Positions 34,575 to 47,617 are shown, counted from the first letter of the stretch. The stretch is 62,025 nt of DNA from an uncultured virus (IMG/VR IMGVR_UViG_3300028840_007129) (IMGVR_UViG_3300028840_007129); one strand, 5' to 3'. A program made the numbers and translations. Notes: a model not told the origin generated them from the letters alone.

Positions 34575-34580
34575 AAAAAT

Positions 34581-34827: not shown

Positions 34828-34880
34828 GGAACCTCCTCTAGGGGCTGAATGGAATCCTTATATCAGTAGATTATCTAAAG

Positions 34881-34954
34881 TGTCCCTGGATGGGCTCGAA
34901 CCATCAACCTTCGGCTCCGGAGGCCGACGTTCTATCCAATTGAACTACAGGGAC
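34881..34954 (-). tRNA. trnR: tRNA-Arg(CCG)
   Basis: TCGGC-CT CCG GA-GCCGA. Confidence 0.95.
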
Positions 34955-35015
34955 GCAAGTGACGCCCTTTAAAGACGGCACTCATACTCTTTCTACACGT
35001 GGCAGATGAGCTATA

Positions 35016-35089
35016 TGGGACCGGCCTGATTCGAACAGGCGACCCCTACCATGTCAAGGTAGTGCTCTAACCATCTGAGCTACGATCCC
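35016..35089 (-). tRNA. trnV: tRNA-Val(GAC)
   Basis: CTACC-TT GAC AT-GGTAG. Confidence 0.95.
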
Positions 35090-35303
35090 GGTCATTTTCT
35101 CTTTTTTCCTGAACGGTAATCTCCTTCAATTTCTTTCTGGGATTCCCACACATGGTACAGGAGCACATTTTGGTCGTATTCCTGTGCAGCCTAATCCATC
35201 GAGGAATCTCCTCCTTTGATAAAAGGGGATCACCAAAAGCACGCTTTCTCCCCTTGTACTCGCTTTTGAGAAAACGATCCCTTTTGTCCTTCGGATGAGA
35301 CAT
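35067..35303 (-). CDS. small basic Cys-motif protein
   Basis: CSCTMCGNPRKK; start MSHPK. Confidence 0.7.
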   Translation of the reverse strand: MSHPKDKRDRFLKSEYKGRKRAFGDPLLSKEEIPRWIRLHRNTTKMCSCTMCGNPRKKLKEITVQEKRENDRDRSSDG

Positions 35304-35319
35304 GAGTAACACCCCCTGT

Positions 35320-35337
35320 TTAGAGTATTGTACTCAT
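35320..35337 (-). promoter_or_regulatory. uORF MSTIL* within a start-occluding hairpin
   Basis: AAAGGAGGGAGG RBS; GACATGAGTA/TACTCATGTC 10-bp stem. Confidence 0.6.
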
Positions 35338-35360
35338 GTCCTCCCTCCTTTCGGATTTGG

Positions 35361-35437
35361 TGGCACCCCTGCCAGGACTTGAACCCGGACTCTCCTGGTC
35401 CGTAGCCAGACGCTTTATCCAGTTAAGCTACAGGGGC
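35361..35437 (-). tRNA. trnR: tRNA-Arg(ACG)
   Basis: TCTGG-CT ACG GA-CCAGG. Confidence 0.95.
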
Positions 35438-35473
35438 GTATAACTCATAGGAGGCCATCAAGCCCCTCAAAAA

Positions 35474-35548
35474 TGGTACACCCAGAAGGACTCGAACCTT
35501 CAACCCATCGGTTAAGAGCCGATTGCTCTACCATTGAGCCATGGGTGC
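35474..35548 (-). tRNA. trnK: tRNA-Lys(CTT)
   Basis: ATCGG-CT CTT AA-CCGAT. Confidence 0.95.
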
Positions 35549-35553
35549 ATATC

Positions 35554-35628
35554 TGGTACCCCCGCCAGGATTTGAACCTGGGACCCACGGTTTAAAAGAC
35601 CGCTGCGCTACCACTGCGCTACGAGGGC
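35554..35628 (-). tRNA. trnK: tRNA-Lys(TTT)
   Basis: GCGGT-CT TTT AA-ACCGT. Confidence 0.95.
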
Positions 35629-35630
35629 AT

Positions 35631-35667
35631 AAATAAAAAGACCCGCCTGATTTCTCGGGCGGGTCTT
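35631..35667 (-). terminator. attenuator 1 intrinsic terminator
   Basis: AGACCCGCC-C-GA-GAAA-TC-A-GGCGGGTCT followed by TTTTATTT. Confidence 0.9.
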
Positions 35668-35691
35668 CTGTTTCAGAATTTAAACTCTAAT

Positions 35692-35778
35692 TCAGACAGA
35701 CCCCGCCCGGTCACGCTTAACCCAGCGATCTATACGGTCACGTTTGACCCGGCGTACTATCTGAATTACAGTGCTCAT
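35692..35778 (-). CDS. leader peptide 1 (28 aa, leaderless mRNA)
   Basis: MSTVIQIVRRVKRDRIDRWVKRDRAGSV; ATG 7 nt after the -10 box; codons match cluster-1 tRNAs. Confidence 0.85.
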   Translation of the reverse strand: MSTVIQIVRRVKRDRIDRWVKRDRAGSV

Positions 35779-35785
35779 ACTGACA

Positions 35786-35814
35786 ATAATACCTTATTCT
35801 GGGCTTAAAGTCAA
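35786..35814 (-). promoter_or_regulatory. sigma70 promoter of tRNA cluster 1
   Basis: TTGACT-17-TATTAT. Confidence 0.85.
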
Positions 35815-35849
35815 TACCTAAAATGAAAAATTTTTCTGAAACTTTAAAG

Positions 35850-37043
35850 TCAGGTAATCGATATGATATTCGGGTTTGACCCGGATATGCTTAGTGTTTT
35901 CGTGGACTCAGATGAAGCTAATGGAGTTTCTCTTGGACAACTGTAGAATCCACATACATACGTAATAGGATGTTTGCTGGCAGAAACATAGGAAACTGCG
36001 TCCGGTACCTCGTCAGAGAAGGCCAATATAGTATCCGAGTTCCAATCAGCCTGACTGAAGATATCCTTGCTCCATGACGTTCTCAGATTCGCAATGACAA
36101 CGGAAGTAATGATACCAGCATCCACAAGATCCTTATAAGATTGTGCCTGCTGGACATCTCCTACCATCATCATCACATCAACTCCTGTGCCACACTTCTC
36201 CCGATACTTTTTTATAAGCTCCCTCATAAAGGTTGTCTTGCCGATGTTTCTGAGATTACCGCAGTCAATGTTCAAAATACCGTTTGACCGGCTATTATCC
36301 CATTGGGACTTTAATAGCTCAAGACCCATGGCGTTTTTGAAACTCTTGAAATCTAGGTCACTCGGCTTGATGCACGTGATATCGAAAGCACTAATACAAG
36401 GACCCATGACACCCTCTCCCATTCTTCTGGGTTTGAAGGCATCTCTTTCGAATGCGGCAATGTCGTTAAGAAATGTGCGACAGGTGAAAGAGATGCTGTC
36501 ATCGTTATTAGCTGGGTCCTTTGAGACAAGGGGCTCTAATTTATTGAAAGCTGAATGTTCCCTTATAAGGCCATCACCAGTTTGAAAGGTCCAAAATTTG
36601 TAGAGCATTGCATATGGGGCCACTTTCTTATCAGGATTGCGATAGAAGTAATTAGTCTCTTTGTCATAGAGACAGTCAGCTAGTAACTTGAAGGCCACCT
36701 GAATATGGGTTATTGCCGGTGATAGACATATCTCGCGTATCATGGTATCGAAACGAAGTTCTGCGTTCCATTCGAAGACAGCCTGCCTTACAGAATAACG
36801 TATCTGGTCCAGATACATTGTAGGGATGGCGAAAAGGAAGTCCTTTACCCATTCATTGTACGTTTTTGGAAGCGTACCGGGGAATTCTCCAAAAGTGTAG
36901 GATTTCATTTTCCTATCATCTACAGAGCTCCAGTCGAGCTTGTAGATAGATGTAGACCCAGACTCTTCAGATCCAGGCTTGAAGCTAACGTCTTCGAGAT
37001 GAATGAGTTGGGGGAAGAATAGGGGACGAGAGAAGCGTAACAT
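35850..37043 (-). CDS. hypothetical protein with degenerate P-loop
   Basis: GNLRNIGKTT ... FSDE; AGGAGG RBS. Confidence 0.7.
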   Translation of the reverse strand: MLRFSRPLFFPQLIHLEDVSFKPGSEESGSTSIYKLDWSSVDDRKMKSYTFGEFPGTLPKTYNEWVKDFLFAIPTMYLDQIRYSVRQAVFEWNAELRFDTMIREICLSPAITHIQVAFKLLADCLYDKETNYFYRNPDKKVAPYAMLYKFWTFQTGDGLIREHSAFNKLEPLVSKDPANNDDSISFTCRTFLNDIAAFERDAFKPRRMGEGVMGPCISAFDITCIKPSDLDFKSFKNAMGLELLKSQWDNSRSNGILNIDCGNLRNIGKTTFMRELIKKYREKCGTGVDVMMMVGDVQQAQSYKDLVDAGIITSVVIANLRTSWSKDIFSQADWNSDTILAFSDEVPDAVSYVSASKHPITYVCGFYSCPRETPLASSESTKTLSISGSNPNIISIT

Positions 37044-37165
37044 GGCACACCTCCTGTGCTTGTACCGGGTAAGACAAAATACCGCAGACCTTCTGCGGTT
37101 ACCACAAGCGCAGGAATTATTAATAAATTATTGATATTTTCGTAAGAGTAACAAAGGAGGCCGCC

Positions 37166-37315
37166 ATGGCTGCAACAACAACCGATGCTCAGATGGGTCA
37201 GACTAAGGGTTCTATATCTCCTACGATAGGAGTATATAAGGAGACGTATACGTGGGTTCTTGATACGAAAACGAATGTCCCCGTGGCCGTGAGGAAGTCG
37301 GTCACTATAGGGTAA
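37166..37315 (+). CDS. 49-aa hypothetical protein (not in ORF track)
   Basis: AAGGAGG RBS; MAATTTDAQMGQ... Confidence 0.6.
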   Translation: MAATTTDAQMGQTKGSISPTIGVYKETYTWVLDTKTNVPVAVRKSVTIG

Positions 37316-37466
37316 CACCGTTTTCTAGGGCTCTTCTATACGTGTTTATGGCCCTTCTGTAGTCTTCTGAAGAGACCCTTCTCTTCTTAGAATCCTTTAA
37401 TCTGTCTCTGAACCGTTCTGCGTCTTTTCCACGTAGTATAGGCGTGTCTTTTATTGGAAGGGCCAT
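37305..37466 (-). CDS. 53-aa basic protein (not in ORF track)
   Basis: GGAG RBS; MALPIKDTPILRGKDAERFR... Confidence 0.6.
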   Translation of the reverse strand: MALPIKDTPILRGKDAERFRDRLKDSKKRRVSSEDYRRAINTYRRALENGVTL

Positions 37467-37495
37467 AGGTCATCTCCAAATAAAAAAGGGGCCAA

Positions 37496-38074
37496 TCAGG
37501 CCCCTGCTACGTATGGCTTCAGGATTTTATCGACGTAGAAACGGTGAGATATCTTATTCGGGTTGTAGGCGAACCTGAATACAGCGTAATCACCCTTCCT
37601 TACGGTCGGTACTGCTGGCTTCCGAATGAGTTCAAGACCAACCTCCTCCGGTAGCTTGTTACGCTTGACCACGACATTGTGATGCCTGCAACAGCATACG
37701 CAGTTCTCATAAGATGTTGCACCACCCTTCTCTCTGGGGGTGACGTGGTCAATCGTCCTTTCGTTCTCCGTACAAGTATAGGCGAACCTTTTACCGTCTT
37801 TGGTATAGTGCCAGTACTGACACTGGTTCTTGTCCCTGTTGTAGACCCCGTGGTCACTGTAAGGGACCCTGTCAGACTTGATACGATATGAAACGAAGTG
37901 GACAAGCCTTACGACGAGAGGAATCTTGAATCTTACTTCGAAGCTGCGGACCTCTTCGTCGTCCTTGGATACGAGTACCTCAATCTTATCCTTCACAAGC
38001 CACTTGATGGCTTTCTTGAGGTCTACTTCGGTCCAGTACTCGTAATTGCGGTTAAGAACGACTACAGAATACAT
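37496..38074 (-). CDS. HNH endonuclease (McrA-like)
   Basis: VVVLN, RDKNQCQY, TIDHVTPREKGG, NCVCCC. Confidence 0.88.
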   Translation of the reverse strand: MYSVVVLNRNYEYWTEVDLKKAIKWLVKDKIEVLVSKDDEEVRSFEVRFKIPLVVRLVHFVSYRIKSDRVPYSDHGVYNRDKNQCQYWHYTKDGKRFAYTCTENERTIDHVTPREKGGATSYENCVCCCRHHNVVVKRNKLPEEVGLELIRKPAVPTVRKGDYAVFRFAYNPNKISHRFYVDKILKPYVAGA

Positions 38075-38105
38075 AGCGGGGACTAATCCTTTCTGCGAAT
38101 AAGTG

Positions 38106-38147
38106 TTAACAGAGCGTATCGTATTCTTCGTAATATTTTATTGTCAT
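38106..38147 (-). promoter_or_regulatory. uORF MTIKYYEEYDTLC* pairing with the HNH start region
   Basis: AAAGGAG RBS; ATTAC..AGAATAC complementary to GTATTCT-GTAGT at the HNH start. Confidence 0.55.
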
Positions 38148-38178
38148 TACGACTCCTTTCTTCTGCTGATAGTTCATA

Positions 38179-38251
38179 TGCCCCTAGCACGATTCGAACG
38201 TGCGACACCCGGTTTAGGAAACCAGTACTCTATCCCCTGAGCTATAGGGGC
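38179..38251 (-). tRNA. trnR: tRNA-Arg(CCT)
   Basis: CTGGT-TT CCT AA-ACCGG. Confidence 0.93.
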
Positions 38252-38258
38252 AAAAATA

Positions 38259-38335
38259 TGGCACGCCCGGCAGGATTCGAACCTGCGACCTACTGCTTAG
38301 AAGGCAGTTGCTCTATCCAGCTGAGCTACGGGCGC
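38259..38335 (-). tRNA. trnR: tRNA-Arg(TCT)
   Basis: ACTGC-CT TCT AA-GCAGT. Confidence 0.95.
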
Positions 38336-38344
38336 ACATCTCTA

Positions 38345-38431
38345 TGGCGGAGAGACCGAGATTCGAACTCGGGGTGCTTTTGGCACACACGCTCTCCAGG
38401 CGTGCTCCTTAGACCACTCGGACACCTCTCC
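38345..38431 (-). tRNA. trnS: tRNA-Ser(GGA)
   Basis: CACGC-CT GGA GA-GCGTG; long variable arm. Confidence 0.95.
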
Positions 38432-38833
38432 TTAGTCTCTCTCGTCGACACCAAGGTTGTACAAGACGTTCAAAAGTCTCCTCTTGATAATTTCTTCCGG
38501 AGTAATTGAGTTCCTCCGATAGAACAACATTATGATCGTATTATCGTTCAGAACGACTTTCCAATCGACGGTAATGGGAGAGCAAAGCTGCTTTCCGTTC
38601 CAGACGAAATCGAACTTGTAGTTCTTTTCAACATATTTGATTTTACCGGATCTGGCGTCGTCCACAAGCTCCCGGAAGATCTCGATCTTCCTGTTGATGT
38701 AATCATCCCGACGGTTGTAATCGTCTTCTCTGTGATTGAAATCCTCGTCACCCCTTCTTTCTTCATCATAGTCTTCAGGGTGGTTGATTCTCTGATTTAG
38801 TTCTCTGAGCGAAGGGTCTCCATTACCGTTCAT
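38432..38833 (-). CDS. hypothetical protein
   Basis: 133 aa, coupled to upstream ORF. Confidence 0.7.
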   Translation of the reverse strand: MNGNGDPSLRELNQRINHPEDYDEERRGDEDFNHREDDYNRRDDYINRKIEIFRELVDDARSGKIKYVEKNYKFDFVWNGKQLCSPITVDWKVVLNDNTIIMLFYRRNSITPEEIIKRRLLNVLYNLGVDERD

Positions 38834-39021
38834 ACACCTACCTGCTTGGATGTTAATGTTAACGCAATACCTATGGGCTGACTTTTAGGTTCAAGCCGCT
38901 GGAGTTTGACTGTTTTGTTCTCTAGGAATTTCAATTCCCCTACAATCTCCTGAGCCTTTTCCCTCGCAGCGATATCGTCCATAGCCTTCATTGGTATCCG
39001 AACGATAAGCTGATAGTCCAT
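38830..39021 (-). CDS. hypothetical protein
   Basis: AGGAG RBS, 63 aa. Confidence 0.65.
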   Translation of the reverse strand: MDYQLIVRIPMKAMDDIAAREKAQEIVGELKFLENKTVKLQRLEPKSQPIGIALTLTSKQVGV

Positions 39022-39063
39022 AGGGTAACTCCTGACCTAGAATATAATGTTTTATGCTGTAAG

Positions 39064-39146
39064 CGGAGAAGAGAGGACTCGAACCTCTGAGGCCTAGGGC
39101 CCTGCCGAATTTCGAATTCGGTTCCTCGACCTTCCGGACCTTCTCC
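39064..39146 (-). tRNA. trnS: tRNA-Ser(CGA)
   Basis: CCGAA-TT CGA AA-TTCGG; long variable arm. Confidence 0.88.
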
Positions 39147-39155
39147 TCTAGAAAA

Positions 39156-39233
39156 TGGTGGGCGTACCTGGACTTGAACCAGGGAACCTCCTCCTTATCA
39201 GAGAGGCGTTCTAACCAGCTGAACTATACGCCC
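39156..39233 (-). tRNA. trnI: tRNA-Ile(GAT)
   Basis: CCTCT-CT GAT AA-GGAGG. Confidence 0.93.
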
Positions 39234-39240
39234 AGAATAA

Positions 39241-39324
39241 TGGGAGTGTAAGGATTCGAACCTTCCTAGTCGTAAGACAACGGATTTACAGTCCGCCCCA
39301 GCTCACCGCCTCTGGCGCACTCCC
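39241..39324 (-). tRNA. trnY: tRNA-Tyr(GTA)
   Basis: GCGGA-CT GTA AA-TCCGT; long variable arm (bacterial type). Confidence 0.92.
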
Positions 39325-39332
39325 TTAATGAC

Positions 39333-39410
39333 TGGTACCGGAGGGCGGCCTTGAACCGCCGACTGACATACCTTATGAGGGTACCGCACTACCAACTGTG
39401 CTACTCCGGT
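39333..39410 (-). tRNA. trnM: tRNA-Met(CAT), probably elongator
   Basis: GTACC-CT CAT AA-GGTAT. Confidence 0.85.
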
Positions 39411-39415
39411 AGAAA

Positions 39416-39490
39416 TGGTTGCGGGGGCCGGACTCGAACCGGCGACCTTCGGGTTATGAGCCCGAAAAGCTACCACTGCTACACCCCGCT
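39416..39490 (-). tRNA. trnfM: initiator tRNA-fMet(CAT)
   Basis: three consecutive G-C pairs in anticodon stem; 1:72 mismatch. Confidence 0.9.
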
Positions 39491-39505
39491 ATAACTTCTG
39501 ATTAA

Positions 39506-39589
39506 TGCTCAGGACTGGATTTGAACCAGCATGGAGTTGCCCCCACGAGCTCCTGAAACTCGCGTGTCTACCACTTCCACCACCTGAGC
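39506..39589 (-). tRNA. trnL: tRNA-Leu(CAG)
   Basis: CGAGT-TT CAG GA-GCTCG. Confidence 0.92.
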
Positions 39590-39596
39590 GAAATCT

Positions 39597-39674
39597 TGGG
39601 GTGATCGAGGGGTTTCGAACCCCCAACCTCTGGAGCCACAGTCCAGTGCTCTAACCTATTGAGCTACAATCACC
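39597..39674 (-). tRNA. trnH: tRNA-His(GTG)
   Basis: CTGGA-CT GTG GC-TCCAG; G-1:C73. Confidence 0.95.
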
Positions 39675-39698
39675 ATGTATGTTCTTGTACAACCCAGA

Positions 39699-39710
39699 AT
39701 GTCAAAGAAC
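39699..39710 (-). promoter_or_regulatory. boxA-like antitermination site
   Basis: GTTCTTTGACAT. Confidence 0.55.
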
Positions 39711-39711
39711 T

Positions 39712-39796
39712 TGGCGGAGAGACGGGGACTCGAACCCCGAAGGCCAATGGCCGGTAGTTTTCAAGACTACTGGATTACCGATTATCCTATCTCTCC
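39712..39796 (-). tRNA. trnS: tRNA-Ser(TGA)
   Basis: GTAGT-CT TGA AA-ACTAC. Confidence 0.92.
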
Positions 39797-39803
39797 ATAA
39801 AAG

Positions 39804-39888
39804 AGACGTGGACTGGATTTGAACCAGCGCGTGACTCCCGTCAAATGGTTTTGCAGACCACTGCCTTCGACCACTCGGCCACCACGTC
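39804..39888 (-). tRNA. trnC: tRNA-Cys(GCA) with atypical long variable arm
   Basis: GTGGT-CT GCA AA-ACCAT; U73; variable stem TGAC-GGGA-GTCA. Confidence 0.88.
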
Positions 39889-39893
39889 ATAAC

Positions 39894-39980
39894 TGGCAGA
39901 GGAGACAGGATTCGAACCTGTGGTGGTTTTGCCACATCGGTTTAGCAAACCGACGCCTTAAGCCTCTCGGCCACTCCTCC
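39894..39980 (-). tRNA. trnS: tRNA-Ser(GCT)
   Basis: TCGGT-TT GCT AA-ACCGA. Confidence 0.95.
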
Positions 39981-39989
39981 ATACTTTCA

Positions 39990-40072
39990 TGGCTGGGACA
40001 GGCATCGAACCTGCACGAGTTTTCCTCACCAGATCCTAGGTCTGGCGCGTATACCAATTCCGCCACCCAGCC
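39990..40072 (-). tRNA. trnL: tRNA-Leu(TAG)
   Basis: CCAGA-CC TAG GA-TCTGG (C33). Confidence 0.88.
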
Positions 40073-40077
40073 TTACT

Positions 40078-40162
40078 TGGTGCCCAGGGCCCGACTTGAA
40101 CGGGCACGAGTATTCTCAGCAGGGTTTGAGGCTGCCGCGTATACCAATTCCGCCACCTGGGC
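40078..40162 (-). tRNA. trnL: tRNA-Leu(CAA)
   Basis: GCAGC-CT CAA AC-CCTGC (C31:C39 mismatch). Confidence 0.85.
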
Positions 40163-40420
40163 TTATTTTCTTCTCGCTCGCCACTCTGGCATAGGCTCGT
40201 TTACAATTTGTTCTCCGCCATAGTACCATATAAGTGGTTTAGAGTCCCAATGATACTTCCAGTCCCTTATATTCCAAGGGTCATAGTATTTACGATAAGA
40301 CTTTCCATTTGGTACATTGTCAGAATTTCTGACCCTACGATTAGCCTCACGCTTCTTAAACTTGGTAGACTTTTTTCCGTAACCGTCTAAGAACCAGGGC
40401 TCTCTGTAAGACCTTGACAT
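40163..40420 (-). CDS. small basic protein
   Basis: MSRSYR...KREANRRVR...NGKSYRKYYDPWNIRDW; AAGGAG RBS. Confidence 0.75.
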   Translation of the reverse strand: MSRSYREPWFLDGYGKKSTKFKKREANRRVRNSDNVPNGKSYRKYYDPWNIRDWKYHWDSKPLIWYYGGEQIVNEPMPEWRARRK

Positions 40421-40441
40421 GCTGTAGCTCCTTATTGAGTG

Positions 40442-40450
40442 TTACAACAT
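40442..40450 (-). promoter_or_regulatory. uORF ML* within a start-occluding hairpin
   Basis: AAAGGAGG RBS; CATGTTGTA/TACAGCATG stem covers the next ATG. Confidence 0.6.
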
Positions 40451-40474
40451 GCGGTCCTCCTTTCTTATGTAAAA

Positions 40475-40821
40475 TGGTAGCCGGGACGGGACTCGAACCC
40501 GTACGGACACAAGGTCCATTGGATTTTCTTACCACTACAGTTTTCACTGCCAGAAAACTTCTGTTTGTGGTCTGGACTGTCTCTTTACCATGTCTTACGA
40601 TTTAGGTAGGGGGTGTACAGTCTCTACACTCGGTTTTTTAACCTAGCACGGGATTGCCATCAACATTACTTGGAAGGTTTCCCCGTTTTAGCCCCCTGCA
40701 TTAATACCGTTTCCGGCATTAAGCTCAATACGGTGTTTTTAGACCTATATCTTGCAACCGGAATAGGTCAGAAAAAACTCCTTTCAAAGTCCAAAGTGTC
40801 TACCAGTTCCACCACCCGGCC
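40475..40821 (-). tRNA. trnL: tRNA-Leu(TAA) interrupted by a group I intron (exons 40787-40821 and 40475-40527)
   Basis: TTGGA-CT T^AA AA-TCCAA after removing the intron. Confidence 0.9.
40528..40786 (-). ncRNA. group I intron (259 nt, no ORF)
   Basis: 5' exon ends in U with P1 GGACUU/GAGUUU; intron ends in G; P7-type GAGACUG...AAGAGACAGUCC. Confidence 0.88.
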
Positions 40822-40829
40822 ATCAAAAA

Positions 40830-40916
40830 TGGTGCGGTCGACTGGACTTGAACCAGCATGGAGTAGCCTCCACTAGGCCCTCAACCTAGCGCGTATACCA
40901 ATTCCACCACGACCGC
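40830..40916 (-). tRNA. trnL: tRNA-Leu(GAG)
   Basis: CTAGG-TT GAG GG-CCTAG. Confidence 0.95.
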
Positions 40917-40926
40917 AAAGTTAAAA

Positions 40927-41074
40927 GAGTCACACTCTAGTCATCGAGCACAATTTTTCACAGTTCTTGAGACTGTTGCCTGTACCAATTCGGCTATCCC
41001 CCCATAAAAATGGTGGGGGGAGAAGGAATTGAACCTTCATGAATGTACGCCCGCATAGTTAGGGAGTGTGACCC
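40927..41074 (-). ncRNA. circularly permuted tRNA-Leu(CAA)-like RNA
   Basis: T arm + TCCCCCC-A-CCA (41038-41011) precedes GGGGGGA + D arm + anticodon arm (41003-40960); flanks pair over 11 bp. Confidence 0.8.
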
Positions 41075-41079
41075 TAATA

Positions 41080-41090
41080 TTTCAAAGAAC
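41080..41090 (-). promoter_or_regulatory. boxA-like antitermination site
   Basis: GTTCTTTGAAA. Confidence 0.55.
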
Positions 41091-41092
41091 GA

Positions 41093-41168
<76 letters not shown>

Positions 41169-41210
41169 ACTAAAATCATCCTCCATGTATTACCCCAGTA
41201 CAACTCCTTA

Positions 41211-41247
41211 AAAACAAAAACCCCCGCCTGATTTCTCTGGCGGGGGT
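41211..41247 (-). terminator. attenuator 2 intrinsic terminator
   Basis: ACCCCCGCC-A-GA-GAAA-TC-A-GGCGGGGGT followed by TTTTGTTTT. Confidence 0.9.
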
Positions 41248-41274
41248 CCTCTGATTCCTTATTTTTGGTATCAG

Positions 41275-41385
41275 TTAGCTTGGATCCCCCGCCGTGCTTA
41301 GCATAATAAAATAGGAGCACAACGACAGACTAAGGTCCGCGTGTGAACTCCTTAAATGCATGCTTCTGGGGGTAACTGAACGCAT
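41275..41385 (-). CDS. leader peptide 2 (36 aa)
   Basis: AGGAG RBS; MRSVTPRSMHLRSSHADLSLSLCSYFIMLSTAGDPS; codons match cluster-2 tRNAs. Confidence 0.85.
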   Translation of the reverse strand: MRSVTPRSMHLRSSHADLSLSLCSYFIMLSTAGDPS

Positions 41386-41413
41386 AACTCCTACTTTGTT
41401 CAAATTCTCTGTA

Positions 41414-41442
41414 AGTATACATCAAATTCCGGGCCATGTCAA
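41414..41442 (-). promoter_or_regulatory. sigma70 promoter of tRNA cluster 2
   Basis: TTGACA-17-TATACT. Confidence 0.9.
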
Positions 41443-41583
41443 TAGAAAAAATGTTCTGACTAAAAAAAGGGGTCTTTGGCATCTACAGCCCTGATTGTCT
41501 TTCCATCTATTCTCAAGAATCTAAGTGGCTTGATAGCTGGATTAGGATTCTTCGGTTGTTCCTTCTGGCCCTCTCCGCCCCCT

Positions 41584-41988
41584 TTAGAAAGGTTTATATC
41601 GATATTTCCTCAGCACATATTTGAAGATGATGCTATTCAGTTCTCTAGTTGTCTTTGAACTTTGGACCCAGTCTTTGATATCGTCAGGATGGTCAGGCGG
41701 GTATATTCCGAGCTCTCTAATAATATCAAGGCCTTCTTCAGAATTGTAGTATTCAACGAGTTTCCAGAGTACCCGTTCGGTTCTCTTATTTAATGATATA
41801 ACCTCTCCGTTTCGATGTCTATTGCAAATGCCCAGTATATATTTCCATTGCTGGACACCACCAGATTTTCTCGTTATCTCACTAAATAAGTAGGAACGTA
41901 CACCAGTATAGAATGAGAGACGTTTGAGGCGAACTTCCTGTTCCATCTCTTCGTAATACTCTTCAAGAGTTTCCAAGGTCTTTTCCAT
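41584..41988 (-). CDS. hypothetical protein
   Basis: 134-aa ORF. Confidence 0.6.
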   Translation of the reverse strand: MEKTLETLEEYYEEMEQEVRLKRLSFYTGVRSYLFSEITRKSGGVQQWKYILGICNRHRNGEVISLNKRTERVLWKLVEYYNSEEGLDIIRELGIYPPDHPDDIKDWVQSSKTTRELNSIIFKYVLRKYRYKPF

Positions 41989-42037
41989 ATGTTCAGTTTT
42001 ACCTGAATAATGGTAGTAAAAGATTATTGAAAAATAA

Positions 42038-42109
42038 AGCCGGTATCCGGATTTGAACCGAAAACCTGCTGTTTACGAAACAGCTGCTCTACCTTTGAGC
42101 TATACCGGC
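42038..42109 (-). tRNA. trnT: tRNA-Thr(CGT)
   Basis: GCTGT-TT CGT AA-ACAGC. Confidence 0.92.
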
Positions 42110-42115
42110 AGAATA

Positions 42116-42193
42116 TGGAGCCGACAGCAGGAGTCGAACCCGCAACAACTTGAGTACAAATCAAGTGCTCTGAGCCATTTGAGCTATGTCGGC
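42116..42193 (-). tRNA. trnT: tRNA-Thr(TGT)
   Basis: CTTGA-TT TGT AC-TCAAG. Confidence 0.92.
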
Positions 42194-42210
42194 ACTGATA
42201 ATCTATTTAT

Positions 42211-42543
42211 ATGAACGACTTAGGTATGAAAACCGCTACAAAAGCCCCCGGAGAAAAGCTCATCAGCGGTGATGGCTACTATATGATAAAGCCCCCTAAG
42301 GGCTATAAGGGCAAGACTTACATAGATGGCCGGTACATTTATGAGCACCGGTATATTATGGAGAAAAAGCTTGGAAGGCCCCTAAAATATAATGAGAACA
42401 TAGATCACATAAATGGTAATAAATTGGACAACAGACCCTCGAATCTAAGGCTCCTCTCAAGGGCCAAGCACACTCAACATACAAAGCCCGCCAAAAAGGC
42501 CAGAAGTATCGTAGAGGCCTACCTCAAACTACAAGCCTCTTAG
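42211..42543 (+). CDS. HNH endonuclease
   Basis: YEHRYIME...HINGNKLDNRPSNL. Confidence 0.88.
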   Translation: MNDLGMKTATKAPGEKLISGDGYYMIKPPKGYKGKTYIDGRYIYEHRYIMEKKLGRPLKYNENIDHINGNKLDNRPSNLRLLSRAKHTQHTKPAKKARSIVEAYLKLQAS

Positions 42544-43844
42544 CCTCTACCCTTTTACCGATTTTTATATCTACAAAGACCGTCCCAGGGTTATCCTGGC
42601 CTGGCTGAATAATAGTGGTATTACCGAGTTTGGCCTTCCATGTATTACTCACCCACGGAGACTCGTGTATATGGCCGCAGAGGACGAGTAGCGGCTGTTC
42701 TCTTTCTATCCATTTTCTGACGGAATCTGACCCGACTCTCCTATAACCCAGACACACATCAAGGTTCAGGCCTGATGGGGGGCAATGAATCGCAGCTATT
42801 ACTTTCGGCCCTCCAGGAAATGTCTTGAGATCATCTTCAATGGTGCCCTTGTTCTTGAAATATTCATGGGGGTCTTCAACCACAACGAAGCCCCCATCGG
42901 TGACATCGACGGGCTTACCGGTATAGGGTTCCTCAAGAAACCATCCCTGATGGTCTATTTTGCATGCTGTTTTTAACCCGAAGCGATAATCAGGGACATA
43001 CCCATAAGCAGTAAAAAAGTAGCCGCCGAACCCCATTTACCGTCGTGCTTTCCGGCGCACAATCTCATCCATCACCGTCTGCGCATCCATCGAGGTATCC
43101 AGGCCAAGCCACTCCCCGAATTTGCGGACCGAGCACTCCGGCACCTGCGTTTCAAGCAGCCACATGAAATTGGGCGACAGACGTGCCAGGTGAATGGACG
43201 GTTATTCACCCCCTCCCCAGCAGGAACCCGTCATCCGCAAGCGCACCAATTACCCCTATGAGGAGGCAGTTGCCGGGGATCAACATTTAACATTGAGCAC
43301 CGAGACAATTTCTGCATTCATTCGTAAGCCATTATTATTTAATGAGTTGTCTTGGTTGTTGCCGGGAAATTATTTGCTGCTTGCCGATGCAACATTTAAC
43401 ATGCGGGTCTACGGGATTTAACACCATTGGCCTTCCTGAAGGCAAAAAACCTGCCGCCGATCGGGTTTGCTACCGGGAAACTCGGCGGGTACTTCCGGCG
43501 GGTTTTTGGGCTCGCGAACGTGCCCACAAGTGGCGGATTTTGAAGGACCCTACCGGGGTTTCATCGAGAAGAGACGCATATTCGAGGAGGTATCTCTTTC
43601 GGGTATAGATATCATCATTTCCGAAGAAAGCCAGGACCTTTATACCCGATTCGGAGCATTTTAGATAGAATTCCTTGAGGTAATTTCTTATGAATGCTTT
43701 TTGTTCTTTTAATATCTCAGGACCTTTTGGTAGAATATCTGCCCCAATATGAATAAGGTCTATACCGTTATCATAAGCATACTGATAGACATCATCGTAT
43801 TTTCTTTGATTGCCGTGAAGATCCGTAGCGTATAGAAATCTCAT
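42524..43844 (-). pseudogene. calcineurin-like metallophosphoesterase split by a 517-bp insertion
   Basis: N-half TDLHG, GAD, GNDD; C-half HCPP, LCGHIHE; removing the insert restores the frame (ETPVGFGGYFF). Confidence 0.85.
43030..43550 (-). mobile_element. foreign insertion flanked by GGGT direct repeat, with cos- or att-arm-like motifs
   Basis: GC-richer; GGGTCCT-17 bp-dyad TGGGC..GCCCA; ATGTTAAATGTTG x2; IHF-like AT-rich site. Confidence 0.6.
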
Positions 43845-43859
43845 GTAAAATCCTTTGAG

Positions 43860-43931
43860 AGCGACAGGCCGGGATTGAACCGGCGACATCTACCTTGGCA
43901 AGGTAGCATTCTACCACTGAATTACTGTCGC
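43860..43931 (-). tRNA. trnG: tRNA-Gly(GCC)
   Basis: CTACC-TT GCC AA-GGTAG. Confidence 0.95.
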
Positions 43932-43941
43932 AAAGGGTTAA

Positions 43942-44016
43942 TGGAGCGGGATGTCGGGTTCGAACCGACGGCGTCAACCTTGGAAGGGTTGCATTCTACC
44001 ACTGAATTAATCCCGC
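43942..44016 (-). tRNA. trnG: tRNA-Gly(TCC)
   Basis: CAACC-CT TCC AA-GGTTG. Confidence 0.95.
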
Positions 44017-44026
44017 TAGATTACAA

Positions 44027-44102
44027 TGGAGCGGAAGACGGGGTTCGAACCCGCGACAACCTGCTTGGGAAGCAGGAACTCTACCACCTGAGCTACTTCC
44101 GC
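44027..44102 (-). tRNA. trnG: tRNA-Gly(CCC)
   Basis: CCTGC-TT CCC AA-GCAGG. Confidence 0.95.
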
Positions 44103-44103
44103 A

Positions 44104-44256
44104 TCAGTCCCAAATATCATCCTCCTCATTATCCTCTAATGAAAACGTATCCATCTCAATACTCTGGTCTTCGTCGTCTTCGTCTACCTCATCATCAAAT
44201 CCGCTGAAGCAGCTCATCATTTCAAGATGGTGGCTCTCATAATCATCGTCATACAT
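44104..44256 (-). CDS. 50-aa extremely acidic peptide (not in ORF track)
   Basis: MYDDDYESHHLEMMSCFSGFDDEVDEDDEDQSIEMDTFSLEDNEEDDIWD. Confidence 0.55.
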   Translation of the reverse strand: MYDDDYESHHLEMMSCFSGFDDEVDEDDEDQSIEMDTFSLEDNEEDDIWD

Positions 44257-44421
44257 TTTATCTTTTCCCGGATGAAGGTTGCAGCTTACTTTTCAGCTGG
44301 ATCATACAATCGGGAAAAACCCTACGGCAAGATGAATTTTTCGCTTACAAGCAACTCTAATGTTCCCAACGGGTTACATTCATAATAATCTATCGATAAT
44401 GGGTATTATTTACAAAAAGTA

Positions 44422-44494
44422 TGGAACCAGTCGGGATCGAACCGACGACCTCCTGCTTGCAAAGCAGGCGCTCTCCCAATTGAGCTATGGCCCC
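44422..44494 (-). tRNA. trnA: tRNA-Ala(TGC)
   Basis: CCTGC-TT TGC AA-GCAGG; G3.U70. Confidence 0.95.
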
Positions 44495-44503
44495 ATAGAA
44501 AAA

Positions 44504-44560
44504 TGGAATCGGCCGGGATCGAACCGGCGACCTCAACGCTGCCAGCGTTGCTACGACCCC
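44504..44560 (-). tRNA. trnA: D-armless tRNA-Ala(GGC) (possibly pseudo)
   Basis: GGGGTCG-TAG-CAACG CT GGC AG CGTTG-AGGTC-T arm-CGATTCC-A; 57 nt. Confidence 0.75.
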
Positions 44561-44604
44561 AGGCGCTATTGATATGAGATCCTTCCATACTTTATTTTTC
44601 CGGT

Positions 44605-45015
44605 ATGGCAGACACACTTCTTCTTATCTCAGAATCTGGCGGCGGAGTCTTCAGGATTTCTACTGGCACTCTCAAAAATCCCGGTGATTTTCAGAGAGAT
44701 AAAACTATAGAAATCTCTGACCAGAATCCTTTTATGCTTTGGAATCTCCTCTATGAGATGGCATCCCTACCTATTCCTCGTCATCCCATCGAAACTAAGC
44801 CTGAAAAGGCTACAAGGGACGATGGCGAGTTCATGGGAATGACAGGAAAACAGGTCATAGATGAGGTGTACAAGCGCACGGGCATTCTCATAACTATAAG
44901 CCCTAAGAGCAAAGAACGAATTGTAAAAAAGGCTAAAGAGCTCATCGATCTTTCTCAGCTCCCCAAAAATGAGAATATAGCCTCGCCCGGAATTGAACCG
45001 GGGTGTACGGCTTGA
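44605..45015 (+). CDS. hypothetical protein sharing the rIIB C-terminal repeat domain
   Basis: MTGKQVIDEVYKRTGILITISPKSKERIVKKA. Confidence 0.7.
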   Translation: MADTLLLISESGGGVFRISTGTLKNPGDFQRDKTIEISDQNPFMLWNLLYEMASLPIPRHPIETKPEKATRDDGEFMGMTGKQVIDEVYKRTGILITISPKSKERIVKKAKELIDLSQLPKNENIASPGIEPGCTA

Positions 45016-45050
45016 AGGGCCGTTGGACTAGACCACTATCCTACGAGGCC
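44978..45050 (-). tRNA. trnE: tRNA-Glu(TTC)
   Basis: ACGGC-CC TTC AA-GCCGT (C33). Confidence 0.88.
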
Positions 45051-45376
45051 TTTTTTTCCACTGATGCCTTAAGAAGAGGGACAGCAATAGTCTTTATGAT
45101 TATTTCGAGGGCTTTTATGAAATAGGCCCTCTTGAATCTTCTTATTTTTAGGCCCCTCGTCGCTATAACACCATTTACCATAGCTGCAAGGTGCATCAAA
45201 TTAATCTGATGCTTTTCGGGATGGTCAGAGGTAATGGATAAAACCTTTTCTCTGGCTACATCAAGAGATAGTTGTTTTAGAAACTCCTGGTCTTCTTCAA
45301 ACCACAGGTCACTCACGCTTTCACGCATGAGCCCAAAAATCTCTTGCTGCAACTTCTCAATAGTTTCATTATTCAC
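45041..45376 (-). CDS. hypothetical protein
   Basis: 111 aa. Confidence 0.7.
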   Translation of the reverse strand: MNNETIEKLQQEIFGLMRESVSDLWFEEDQEFLKQLSLDVAREKVLSITSDHPEKHQINLMHLAAMVNGVIATRGLKIRRFKRAYFIKALEIIIKTIAVPLLKASVEKKAS

Positions 45377-45379
45377 TTT

Positions 45380-45610
45380 TCAGTCTCCTGCTGCCGTGGA
45401 ATCTGCTTGATTCACGAGTTTTTGGAACTGTTCAGCAGTCTGGATTCTTATTCTTTTTGAATCGCTATCCAGATTTTGGTCATTTTTAACATAGTTCCTG
45501 TACTCGGGCAGGATAACTCGTGTATAACTGTCTACAGCTTTGATGAAGGACCTATTCGAGGAGCAGCTAACAAGGGATAGAATCGAAACAACAACGATTA
45601 TACGCTTCAT
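45380..45610 (-). CDS. lipoprotein
   Basis: signal peptide with lipobox LVS-C. Confidence 0.75.
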   Translation of the reverse strand: MKRIIVVVSILSLVSCSSNRSFIKAVDSYTRVILPEYRNYVKNDQNLDSDSKRIRIQTAEQFQKLVNQADSTAAGD

Positions 45611-45628
45611 GTTTACCCCTTATTGTAA

Positions 45629-45705
45629 TGGAGCCCACGATCGGGCTTGAACCGATGAACCTCATCCTTACCAAGGATGTGCTCTACCAACTGAGCTACA
45701 TGGGC
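45629..45705 (-). tRNA. trnT: tRNA-Thr(GGT)
   Basis: CATCC-TT GGT AA-GGATG. Confidence 0.95.
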
Positions 45706-45726
45706 TTTATCGAGTATCGATACAAT

Positions 45727-46500
45727 CTAAAATTCGAACTTCTGACCTTTACTAACAAAGCCAGAAAAACCGTCAGCTCTTGCATCGGGAAGGTCTTTGA
45801 GGGTGTTGTAATGATAGAGCCATATTTTCTTTTTCAACTCTGGTGCCAGGGTCTTTAAGTCCTCATAATGCGCGTGGACCCCGCTCTGATGTTGTGATGT
45901 CTCACAGTCATGGAAAACGACATCAGCCCCTTTTATGAAGTCTTTCAGCTGAGTCGGGGCAAATTGGGTATCTGAAGTTATAAAGATTGATGTCCCACTG
46001 ATAGGATCCTTAAATTTCAATCCGAAAGATTTCACAAAAGTAGCATCAGCAATAACGTGTATAGTTTGAACAGGTTTGAATACGCACCCATCAAATTCGA
46101 ATGAAGCATTGTTGGGAACCCCGACCGTATCAAAGAAGGTCTCCAGAGTGGCATCCTTAAGCTGAATGGAATCCAAGCCACCCCGCAAGGATTGATTCCA
46201 AAGGTCTTTGATTAACATGGAATTTGCAAACAACTTTGGCCTGAATCCCGTGTTTACGGTCTTGCAGAAGTAATTCAGAAAGGCCATGTATTCCAGGCCG
46301 CCGATGTGGTCCGCATGAAGATGAGAGACATAGATAGCATCTATGTCTAAAGCTGAAAGGCCCTGCTCTTTCAAGGACCATCTAATATCTCCCCCACAAT
46401 CAAAGAGCATTTTCTTTCCGGAAGGGGTCTGAATAAGAGCGTTCGATTGGAAATTGTCCATACAGAATGCGGATCCGCTACCAAGAAAAGTTAAAATCAT
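45727..46500 (-). CDS. metallo-beta-lactamase-fold hydrolase (RNase Z/BN-like)
   Basis: FLGSGSAF, DCG, SHLHADHIGG, TSDT, HDCE, LYHY. Confidence 0.85.
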   Translation of the reverse strand: MILTFLGSGSAFCMDNFQSNALIQTPSGKKMLFDCGGDIRWSLKEQGLSALDIDAIYVSHLHADHIGGLEYMAFLNYFCKTVNTGFRPKLFANSMLIKDLWNQSLRGGLDSIQLKDATLETFFDTVGVPNNASFEFDGCVFKPVQTIHVIADATFVKSFGLKFKDPISGTSIFITSDTQFAPTQLKDFIKGADVVFHDCETSQHQSGVHAHYEDLKTLAPELKKKIWLYHYNTLKDLPDARADGFSGFVSKGQKFEF

Positions 46501-47009
46501 TCTTCTTCTCCTATCAATAGGTCGATAGCTTTTTTAACGTCTTCCTTACGTATACCCTTCCTGCTATCCGTTTTAACAAGTCTATCCATATGCGGGGGTA
46601 TATCGTAAGAGTCATCATCGAGAACAATATAGCTATCGATCTCGAATCCATTCTTCTTGGCGTTATCTAACCAGAAGTCTATCTCTGAGCCTCGACCGAA
46701 AGGCTTACCATCTTTTTTATCCTCTTCCTTCTCATTTATTGAAAAAGATGGCGTTTTGCCTATGATGCTGGATCCATCAAATGGTTCCGGATTAGCCACA
46801 TAACAACCCCAACGGTCGCCCCCACTGCAGAAAAGCTCTTTGAGATTGTTAACCGTCAGGCCCTTCCTCCAGGTGCTCGTTACTACGATTTTAGCACCTG
46901 TACGTTCCAGGATGGTGTTAAGACGTCTCATACAGATAGGGTCAAAATAGCAGAATCTTGTCCTGTCCGTACAGACGACACCATCGATATCAAGGAAGAT
47001 AATTTTCAT
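46497..47009 (-). CDS. HAD-family phosphatase (RNA-repair-associated type)
   Basis: IFLDIDGV, VTSTWR, RGSEI, YIVLDD. Confidence 0.82.
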   Translation of the reverse strand: MKIIFLDIDGVVCTDRTRFCYFDPICMRRLNTILERTGAKIVVTSTWRKGLTVNNLKELFCSGGDRWGCYVANPEPFDGSSIIGKTPSFSINEKEEDKKDGKPFGRGSEIDFWLDNAKKNGFEIDSYIVLDDDSYDIPPHMDRLVKTDSRKGIRKEDVKKAIDLLIGEEE

Positions 47010-47209
47010 GGTACCAGTTCTGTTGATATTCTTAATCTTGCACTTATAGGTAGCGCTTCGTTAAGGTGCTTTATTATTAATGAGCACCCCATTGGGGCAT
47101 GTGATGATATCGTAGCTGTCCCTGAGAAGTTTTTCTGTCATAAGATACTTCTCTATGTCGATTAGGGATACGATACCCAACACGTTATCCAAAAAGAGCT
47201 CCTTATTTT

Positions 47210-47282
47210 TAGCCCCGACGGGAATTGAACCCATGTCTGATGGTTGAGAACCATCTATCCTAGACCACTAGACGACGAGGCC
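47210..47282 (-). tRNA. trnE: tRNA-Glu(CTC)
   Basis: GATGG-TT CTC AA-CCATC. Confidence 0.93.
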
Positions 47283-47296
47283 TAATTTCAAAAATT

Positions 47297-47373
47297 TGGC
47301 TGGGAGGGTGGGGGTCGAACCCACGACCGCGTGATTAACAGTCACGAGCTACTGCCAACTGAGCTACCTCCCA
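47297..47373 (-). tRNA. trnN: tRNA-Asn(GTT)
   Basis: CGTGA-CT GTT AA-TCACG. Confidence 0.93.
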
Positions 47374-47410
47374 GTATCAAATGATAGGTACTTTATCAGC
47401 AGAAATAAAG

Positions 47411-47423
47411 ATGTCAAAGAACA
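47411..47423 (-). promoter_or_regulatory. boxA-like site directly after attenuator 3
   Basis: TGTTCTTTGACAT. Confidence 0.6.
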
Positions 47424-47457
47424 AAATAAAAAAGGCTCCCCGGTTCAGGGAGCCTTT
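47423..47457 (-). terminator. attenuator 3 intrinsic terminator
   Basis: AAAGGCTCCC-TGAACCG-GGGAGCCTTT followed by TTTATTTT. Confidence 0.9.
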
Positions 47458-47484
47458 GGATCTTCGGATGGAAACAAAGACTCC

Positions 47485-47565
47485 CTATAGGTACAGTCCT
47501 TCCGTACCATTGGCCTCGGTGGCCGCGTTATTAAGGACTGATGTCAGGGAGTTCTTTGTCTTCAT
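47485..47565 (-). CDS. leader peptide 3 (26 aa)
   Basis: GAGG RBS; MKTKNSLTSVLNNAATEANGTEGLYL; codons match cluster-3 tRNAs. Confidence 0.85.
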   Translation of the reverse strand: MKTKNSLTSVLNNAATEANGTEGLYL

Positions 47566-47588
47566 AATGACCTCTATGGTTCGCTATT

Positions 47589-47617
47589 AGTATACACCTT
47601 TTCAGAACTAAAATCAA
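47589..47617 (-). promoter_or_regulatory. sigma70 promoter of tRNA cluster 3
   Basis: TTGATT-17-TATACT. Confidence 0.8.

Follow-up and report, generated by a model that had tools for sequence, protein, structure and literature searches.

We describe a putative attenuator, A2, that lies directly upstream of a block of 17 tRNA genes in DNA from the uncultured virus IMGVR_UViG_3300028840_007129 (a stretch of 62,025 nt, hereafter the window, to which all coordinates refer). On the minus strand, A2 (41442-41211) combines a near-consensus promoter, a small open reading frame (ORF) rich in codons read by the tRNAs that are encoded downstream, and an intrinsic terminator in front of the first tRNA gene. 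From this arrangement we infer that A2 acts on a phage tRNA operon by ribosome-mediated, leader-peptide attenuation of transcription and senses the very tRNAs that it controls, and we consider it likely that A2 gates the block in response to slow decoding of the block's own codons. The phage probably makes the tRNAs of this block, cluster 2, only when ribosomes run short of them. The first-pass annotation of this DNA had proposed a codon-matched attenuator gating its tRNA cluster and paralogous to an attenuator 1 elsewhere in the window. Architecture, statistics and comparison with other phages support this proposal; its counts of Leu anticodons, of elongator anticodons and of matching codons had to be corrected.

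ARAGORN places 36 tRNA genes in the window, every one of them on the minus strand and within 34324-47373; Rfam confirmed them. With 36 genes in 13,050 nt, or 2.8 tRNA genes/kb, the array falls within the definition of a tRNA array unit that is given in the available text of Tran et al. (PMC4758250), namely 20 or more tRNA genes with no fewer than 2/kb. Cluster 2 comprises genes for tRNA-Phe, Leu-GAG, Leu-CAA, Leu-UAG, Ser-GCU, Cys, Ser-UGA, His, Leu-CAG, two tRNAs with a CAT anticodon, Tyr, Ile-GAU, Ser-CGA, Ser-GGA, Arg-UCU and Arg-CCU. These 17 genes represent 16 distinct anticodons, and one of the two CAT genes is initiator-like.

The A2 promoter (TTGACA-17-TATACT) agrees with the sigma-70 consensus at 11/12 positions and shares the top score in the region 33000-49000. 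Its -10 hexamer ends 28 nt 5' of the ATG at 41385, and the 5' leader is probably ~22 nt long. The stop codon of the leader ORF ends 25 nt before the terminator stem, in which CCCCCGCC (41246-41239) pairs with GGCGGGGG (41228-41221) ahead of a T-run. On its own the terminator hairpin has a folding energy of -23.1 kcal/mol, and it is located 42 nt 5' of tRNA-Phe, the first gene of cluster 2 (starting at 41168). Folding of the A2 leader was superior to that of all 200 shuffles (z=-3.97). All hairpin elements named in the first-pass annotation could be located: TCAGTTACCCCC, the GGCGGGGG core at 41293-41286, TAACTGA (41277-41271) and CCCCCGCC. The layout is that of a leader-peptide attenuator, with a short ORF near the start of transcription, a run of cognate codons and an intrinsic terminator, and in silico it also allows masking of the antiterminator. 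Two DNA runs (contigs only) have no letters differing from the window across 41172-41700.

To compare leader and cluster, codons were matched to tRNAs by simple wobble rules with the start codon excluded, and the codon usage of the phage's long ORFs served as background. Cluster 2 reads 23/35 sense codons of the A2 leader, where 0.35 is the background share (binomial P=2e-4), and the longest matching run spans 13 codons (P ~1e-5). The five other reading frames give only 5-16 matches. Read on the minus strand from the ATG at 41385, codons 7-30 are exactly those listed in the first-pass annotation, which counted 22 matches among these 24 codons; the actual number is 21/24, because the cluster holds no tRNA-Leu(UAA) for codon 11 (TTA). 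As had been stated, the four Ser anticodons, both AGR Arg tRNAs and the tRNAs for Met, His, Cys, Tyr, Phe and Ile(GAT) are encoded in the cluster, and their cognate codons are found in the leader. The five Leu anticodons reduce to four distinct ones (GAG, CAA, UAG and CAG by ARAGORN and Rfam), the second CAA belonging to a permuted gene described below. Likewise, the supposed sampling of all 17 elongator anticodons becomes a sampling of 16/16 distinct anticodons, with one CAT gene being initiator-like.

Two sister units, A1 and A3, precede the other two blocks of the array (Table 1). Each of the three leaders matches its own block best: A1 in 18/27 codons (3 and 3 for the other two blocks), A2 in 23/35 (6 and 5) and A3 in 13/25 (3 and 7). 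Against long-ORF codon usage the binomial P is 5e-5 for A1, 2e-4 for A2 and 2e-3 for A3. A terminator core common to A2 and attenuator 1 had been noted before, and indeed the 22-nt sequence CCCGCC-N-GAGAAATCAGGCGGG is present exactly twice in the window (41223-41244 and 35642-35663), with zero occurrences expected from 100 shuffles. Between A1 and A2, the -35 region, the surroundings of the antiterminator and the terminator can be aligned; the two ORFs differ in length and content. This likeness fits a duplication followed by retuning of the codons, which two sequences cannot prove. A1 has no Shine-Dalgarno sequence, and 7 nt separate its ATG from the -10 hexamer, so its mRNA is probably leaderless; unit G1-b of the phage record G001 is similar (9 nt). 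Matches to the terminator core in viral contigs (two loci) were dismissed as chance, as they have no tRNA genes and unrelated flanks.

The same organisation recurs in other huge phages, whose arrays were located by tRNA searches across whole records. We found four units in G001 (466,729 bp), one in G002 (180,758 bp) and three in LR756501, an uncultured phage of 735 kb; tests on eight units combine the window with G001 and G002, and tests on 11 units add LR756501. In each of the G001 and G002 units a TTGACA-17-TATATT/TAATCT promoter is followed by a short ORF, and a strong terminator stands right before the first tRNA gene. In G001 the tRNA genes are grouped differently than in the window, and the four G001 leaders track the G001 grouping. 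A leader rich in Ile, Ser (AGC), Phe, Asp and Met codons (16/22) precedes Phe-Asp-Met-Met-Ile-Ser(GCU), and one of Glu, Gly, AGR-Arg and ATA-Ile codons (GAA, GAG, GGT, GGA, AGA, AGG, ATA) precedes Glu-Glu-CAT-Arg(UCU)-Gly x3-Arg(CCU). The remaining two consist of a Lys, CGN-Arg and Val leader before Lys-Val-Lys-Val-Arg-Arg, and of a leader with CAG AAC CCA AAC CCC AAT CAG CAA CCG before Asn-Pro-Gln-Pro-Gln-Pro. In G002, tRNA-Trp is part of the Ser/Leu/aromatic block, and TGG appears in that leader within a matching run of 14 codons. One LR756501 leader contains all six Leu codons and precedes a Leu-only cluster. Across the eight units the binomial P ranges from 9e-3 to 6e-8 (sum log10 P = -32.4), and the true frame outperforms the five other frames in 8/8. 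The order short ORF, antiterminator, terminator, tRNA is kept in 11/11 units of the four phage records, and the leader peptides of the units are unrelated in sequence.

A rule-based scan considered ATG-initiated ORFs of 12-45 codons located up to 250 nt upstream of a tRNA gene and took the tRNA genes within the next 4 kb as the cluster. Among 180 sense ORFs, 10 reached P<1e-3, corresponding to 8 distinct units (two were counted twice owing to nested ORFs), as compared with 0/134 antisense control ORFs.

We also analysed how far the match extends to individual isoacceptors. With the peptides kept fixed and codons redrawn from phage usage, the 23 matched codons of A2 compare with 22.6 expected, the presence of five different Leu codons gives P=0.075 and coverage of 16/16 anticodons P=0.062. 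When the eight units were pooled, 54 anticodons were covered by Watson-Crick pairing as opposed to 43.4 expected (P=0.0004). The idea of the first-pass annotation that each isoacceptor is sampled by a codon of its own is thus not upheld by A2 alone and finds support only in the pooled units. These data place the bulk of the signal at the amino-acid level; a weaker isoacceptor layer becomes visible only in aggregate. The ATA codon, used twice in A1 and three times in G1-b, provides a further example; neither leader has an internal ATG. The D-arms of the CAT tRNAs of the A1 and G1-b blocks are like each other and like those of Ile-GAU tRNAs, which points to tRNA-Ile2, and the CAT tRNAs of blocks with ATG-using leaders resemble elongator Met and initiator tRNAs. 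ATA-using leaders precede just the two Ile-like CAT tRNAs, and a prediction of the codon-matching reading thereby held.

Next to the codons, the spacing and pairing of the units are consistent with a switch. The gap between stop codon and terminator stem is 23-28 nt in 8/8 units measured, and a complement of the terminator 5' arm is found at -35 to +12 nt of the stop codon in 11/11 units. Compared with 500 shuffles each (mononucleotide, not dinucleotide-preserving), the observed energy of the antiterminator duplex was reached by 0-9/500 across the 11 units; in A2 the duplex of antiterminator and 5' arm amounts to -25.5 kcal/mol (z=-6.2; reached by 1/500 shuffles). As a kinetic proxy, we folded a transcript cut before the 3' arm with a 28-nt ribosome footprint masked. 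In this truncated model the 5' arm of A2 is sequestered with P=0.84 when the ribosomal A site is at codons 2-27, with 0.66 at codon 28 and with 0.23-0.46 from codons 29-37 or the stop, and most other units behave similarly. The proposed hairpin between regions 1 and 2 was recovered in part: its CCCCC:GGGGG helix is present in the minimum free energy structure of the full-length RNA, but in the truncated transcript region 2 prefers region 3, even when free of ribosomes.

Based on these data we propose the following sequence of events. Host RNA polymerase would start at the near-consensus sigma-70 promoter and a ribosome would translate the 36-codon leader. With plentiful tRNAs for Phe, Leu, Ser, Cys, His, Met, Tyr, Ile and AGR-Arg, the ribosome would get to the last codons or the stop and cover the antiterminator (41294-41281), the terminator (41249-41218) would fold and transcription would stop 42 nt before tRNA-Phe. 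If any one of those tRNAs were scarce, the ribosome would stall inside codons 7-27, the antiterminator would pair with the 5' arm of the terminator and polymerase would enter the 17 tRNA genes. The outcome would be a negative feedback on tRNA supply, separate for each of the three blocks of the array. Within this scheme, it is from the DNA that we infer that the leader is translated, that ribosomes stall on it, that the switch operates and that the signal is tRNA abundance as opposed to charging.

A number of observations weigh against this scheme. The spacing between AGGAG and ATG in A2 is only 2 nt, which is poor, and TTA, GCG and GAC of the sensor stretch have no tRNA in cluster 2 according to ARAGORN and Rfam. 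Covering 16/16 anticodons is, as described, non-significant for A2 alone. At equilibrium, the full-length A2 RNA keeps its terminator for every ribosome position (P=0.46-0.98). For this reason we adopted the truncated-transcript model; like a classical attenuator, A2 would have to make its decision kinetically. Truncated RNA free of ribosomes forms the antiterminator as well (0.84), so the off state requires that a ribosome arrive at the ORF's end. A3 is weak when the cluster is defined by the 4-kb rule (10/25, P=0.029), and G1-b, whose binomial P reaches only 9e-3 (9.5e-3 in the scan), as well as the Trp/His unit of LR756501 also miss P<1e-3 in the scan. No unit was detectable for ~20/47 tRNAs of G001 or at the second array of G002, and no codon-matched leader at the LR756501 clusters L014, L015 and L019 or at five loci of a further record, G006. 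The cultured Cronobacter phage CR3 has no unit either, its top candidate having P=0.034. A metagenome scan with the tRNA-Phe core (15 loci) revealed no diverged orthologue of the A2 leader: 2/15 loci belong to the same phage, and 13/15 carry a bacterial-type tRNA-Phe with unrelated upstream DNA. The orthologous copies found were thus limited to two metagenome contigs (L034 and L037), which are 99.96-99.98% identical to the window, with 2 and 5 mismatches over ~12 kb; the same phage region is also contained in two DNA runs from different studies. Finally, tRNA abundance and tRNA charging are signals that cannot be told apart from the sequence.

Some of these points would suit a general sensor of translation stress, in which any slowing of ribosomes by antibiotics, amino-acid starvation or host shut-off opens A2 and the codon match is secondary. 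According to the model, the antiterminated state is the same wherever in codons 2-27 the ribosome stalls, the A2 leader contains 17 different amino acids and its anticodon-level tuning is non-significant when A2 is taken alone. Moreover, the long tRNA array of Anabaena is induced by impaired translation, as described in the accessible part of PMC8421152. Such a sensor has no need for three or four leaders per genome that are each biased to their own block (18, 23 and 13 matches vs 3-7 in the window), and neither the co-variation of leader content with the clusters in G001, G002 and LR756501 nor the pooled synonymous-codon signal (P=0.0004) would be expected from it. We regard it as unlikely, albeit as the most serious of the competing explanations. 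A classical amino-acid sensor, with the leader reporting tRNA charging and the tRNA genes as one more output of the starvation response, appears quite improbable to us. The anatomy is that of the ilv, thr and his leaders, and most of the signal is at the amino-acid level, as the fixed-peptide comparison for A2 illustrates (23 vs 22.6). Extra tRNA does not relieve amino-acid starvation, however, and the loop would be without pay-off. ATA codons go with the Ile2-like CAT tRNAs and not with Ile-GAU, and the AGR and CGN codons for Arg are split between different units, each kind together with its own tRNAs; both patterns speak for discrimination at the isoacceptor level.

We give still less credence to the notion that the association is due to chance or that A2 is non-regulatory, i.e. 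an ordinary terminator or insulator behind a short ORF which is untranslated noise or encodes a small protein. The poor Shine-Dalgarno spacing would agree with it, and promoter-like sites in the region are no commoner than in shuffles (30 vs 25.0, standard deviation 5.4). Yet with a promoter, ORF, terminator and tRNA arranged in this order, the tRNA genes would be silent if the terminator were not conditional, and chance would have to account for 11 units in four records, for the 23-28 nt spacing in the eight measured, for an antiterminator in all 11 and for 0/134 antisense control ORFs at P<1e-3. The unrelated peptide sequences argue against a conserved micro-protein. Hardly credible, in our view, is direct binding of tRNA by the leader RNA in the manner of a T-box with no role for translation. 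It is true that tRNA is both the product of the controlled genes and the presumed signal, but Rfam detected no T-box or other riboswitch family in 33000-49000 at E up to 1, and the frame-specific codon match (23 vs 5-16) argues for decoding as opposed to RNA-RNA pairing.

Attenuation by slow decoding of a leader ORF has well-known precedents. Enterobacteria possess the multivalent leaders of ilvGMEDA and ilvBN (Ile-Leu-Val) and thrL (Thr-Ile), along with trpL, hisL, leuL and pheL. As proposed here, A2 shares with them a promoter-proximal short ORF rich in regulatory codons, the combination of several amino acids in one leader, and an antiterminator at or over the ORF end that competes with an intrinsic terminator, the ribosome position being the read-out. 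Unlike these leaders, A2 would control tRNA genes and not biosynthetic ones, and downstream of it lie 17 tRNA genes together with a permuted tRNA and small ORFs; up to 16 anticodons of 10 amino acids are represented per leader, several differently tuned copies exist per genome, and the system is found in a phage. Searches with the Rfam leader families for Phe, Trp, His, Leu and Thr gave no match to A2, and the top leader score was that of Phe_leader on A3 (28.8 bits vs a gathering score of 55, E=0.27). Nor did any other cis-regulatory family of Rfam exceed its threshold. The pheM leader of E. coli pheST and the T-box leaders of synthetase genes are attenuation systems that report the state of the tRNA pool, and T-boxes bind uncharged tRNA directly without translation. 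Like A2, they employ transcription attenuation with a component of the translation apparatus as output; they control synthetases and sense one tRNA species, in contrast to A2, where the output would be the tRNA genes themselves.

Further parallels come from the literature. According to the accessible parts of the respective papers, the trn operon of Anabaena sp. PCC 7120 is a supernumerary, horizontally moving tRNA array that is silent until translation is impaired (PMC8421152) and is under the transcriptional repressor TrcR (PMC10272220). The window array resembles it as a supernumerary tRNA array which, as we propose here, is switched on when translation is impaired. Unlike the window units, which have putative attenuators of their own, the Anabaena array has no described codon-matched sensor ORF, and attenuat-, leader and terminator have 0 occurrences in the available text of PMC8421152. 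In mycobacteria, leaderless polycysteine short ORFs are described as Cys-responsive attenuators in the available text of bioRxiv 10.1101/834739. A1 (7 nt from -10 to ATG) and G1-b (9 nt) resemble these sensor ORFs, which, as far as that text goes, sense a single amino acid and serve Cys-related operons; A2 differs by its ~22-nt 5' leader. In antibiotic-resistance leader ORFs (ermC, cat and mef/mel types; see also PMC4335068) a stalled ribosome remodels downstream RNA to turn genes on. Stalling there is caused by the drug and depends on the nascent peptide, while our proposal for A2 invokes the supply of cognate tRNA. A full-text literature search, which may miss older phage literature, found no leader-peptide attenuator before tRNA genes. 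A2 would be a known mechanistic kind of attenuator with a new target, tRNA genes, and a new logic.

Table 1. Features of the three units and of neighbouring genes in the window.
Feature	Coordinates	Strand	Remarks
-35 hexamer TTGACA, A2 promoter	41437..41442	-	
-10 hexamer TATACT, A2 promoter	41414..41419	-	probable start of transcription near 41407
Shine-Dalgarno-like AGGAG	41388..41392	-	read from sequence
A2 leader ORF, MRSVTPRSMHLRSSHADLSLSLCSYFIMLSTAGDPS	41275..41385	-	36 codons + TAA; ATG 41385, TAA 41277-41275
Sensor stretch	41296..41367	-	codons 7-30
Region 1, TCAGTTACCCCC	41368..41379	-	candidate anti-antiterminator
Region 2, CGGCGGGGGAUCCA	41281..41294	-	putative antiterminator; core GGCGGGGG 41293-41286; inside codons 31-35
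A2 intrinsic terminator	41210..41249	-	stem-loop 41249-41218 (regions 3 + 4) + T-run
Cluster 2, A2-gated (proposed)	38178..41168	-	17 tRNA genes + interspersed small ORFs; ARAGORN, Rfam
Permuted tRNA-Leu(CAA)-like gene	40917..41092	-	in cluster 2, between tRNA-Phe and tRNA-Leu(GAG)
Terminator 3' of HNH ORF	37485..37507	-	likely end of A2 transcription unit
Sister unit A1	35637..35814	-	promoter TTGACT-17-TATTAT
A1 leader ORF, MSTVIQIVRRVKRDRIDRWVKRDRAGSV	35778-35692	-	leaderless-type
A1 terminator	35668-35637	-	
A1-gated block (proposed)	34324-35628	-	Lys x2, Arg-ACG, Val x2, Arg-CCG, Asp, Trp, Ile2-like CAT
Sister unit A3	47431..47617	-	promoter TTGATT-17-TATACT
A3 leader ORF, MKTKNSLTSVLNNAATEANGTEGLYL	47565-47485	-	
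A3 terminator	47457-47431	-	
A3-gated block (proposed)	42038-47373	-	Asn, Glu x2, Thr x3, Ala, Gly x3 + embedded protein genes
HAD_SAK_2 gene	46497-47009	-	in A3-gated unit
Apyc1-like metallo-hydrolase gene	45727-46500	-	in A3-gated unit
CCA-adding enzyme gene	47614-49209	-	ends at A3 promoter

The protein genes in the neighbourhood have the appearance of huge-phage genes; they encode a CCA-adding enzyme, a HAD_SAK_2 domain of RNA-repair type, an Apyc1-like metallo-hydrolase, an NAPRTase and an HNH endonuclease. The top phage relative of the CCA enzyme is that of LR756501, with 37% identity; protein searches with this enzyme yielded four loci with no tRNA nearby, and those with the Apyc1-like protein two loci. 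The ORFs 41584-41988 and 35850-37043 had no relatives in protein searches. Protein genes are interleaved with tRNA genes in the A3-gated unit (41584-47009, minus strand), and tRNA-repair-like and anti-defence-like genes may be co-induced with the A3 tRNAs. A metallophosphoesterase is apparently split into two minus-strand ORFs ~430 nt apart (43470-43889 and 42524-43036), of which the first matches a PHROG profile in its N-terminal portion and the second corresponds to the C-terminal portion of Pfam Metallophos. Between the A3 terminator and the first tRNA gene we noticed the box GTTCTTTGACAT (TCTTTGA[CA]A; 47411-47422, minus strand). It is also present at G1-b, G1-d, G2-a and three LR756501 clusters (loci L010, L011, L014, L016 and L018) and missing from A1 and A2, and might serve either as an additional promoter or as a signal for processing.

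Cluster 2 itself contains the permuted tRNA-Leu gene mentioned above. Its T-arm and acceptor 3' strand with CCA come first, followed by a 7-nt linker and then by the acceptor 5' strand, D-arm and anticodon arm, and its outer ends form a very long variable-arm helix (minimum free energy -54.4, z=-3.35). When the pieces were re-set in normal order, ARAGORN called Leu(caa). A pattern scan of 52 loci found no second permuted tRNA gene; to our knowledge, permuted tRNA genes occur in algae and archaea only. A 42-nt core of the phage tRNA-Phe (41093-41168, minus strand) is identical in bacterial tRNA-Phe genes of 13 metagenome contigs and 11 species genomes, five of the latter 11 being named Zixibacteria and one Acidobacteria, which is a weak hint at the host lineage or the source of the tRNA.

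Among the relatives, G001 and G002 each encode a tRNA with a CUA anticodon, labelled 'Pyl' by ARAGORN (L010 2862-2938, minus strand, and L011 5701-5775, plus strand). This suggests read-through of TAG in these phages. TAG is the stop codon of the A3 and G1-c leaders, and its suppression at a late stage of infection could alter the behaviour of those attenuators. The second tRNA array of G002 ends with a transfer-messenger RNA gene (tag AETLEFPAMPIAA; L012 7869-8272, plus strand).

Why phages carry tRNA genes and how their expression is timed are open questions, to which this DNA suggests a directly testable answer: each block of tRNAs would be produced separately, as demand arises. Leader-peptide attenuation is the oldest known RNA switch logic, and here its loop would be closed on the supply of tRNA and not of amino acids. 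If true, A2 would be a compact natural sensor of individual tRNA pools that is usable as a reporter, it would predict the tRNAs that a phage expects to find missing in its host, and it would tie phage tRNA arrays to tRNA-cleaving defence systems. It may further be, although we place this slightly on the doubtful side of an even call, that in huge phages the tRNA array is a set of regulons gated separately and driven by demand, in which every block has a codon-matched sensor ORF of its own that reads how well individual isoacceptors are supplied. Such sensors would distinguish ATA from ATT/ATC and AGR from CGN, and exactly the lacking tRNAs would be switched on; the A3 switch would also turn on the HAD_SAK_2, Apyc1-like metallo-hydrolase and phosphoesterase genes. 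This would be the first case of tRNA genes controlled through translation of their own codons, and would amount to a phage-encoded translation homeostat for coping with varied host codon usage and tRNA-cleaving host immunity.

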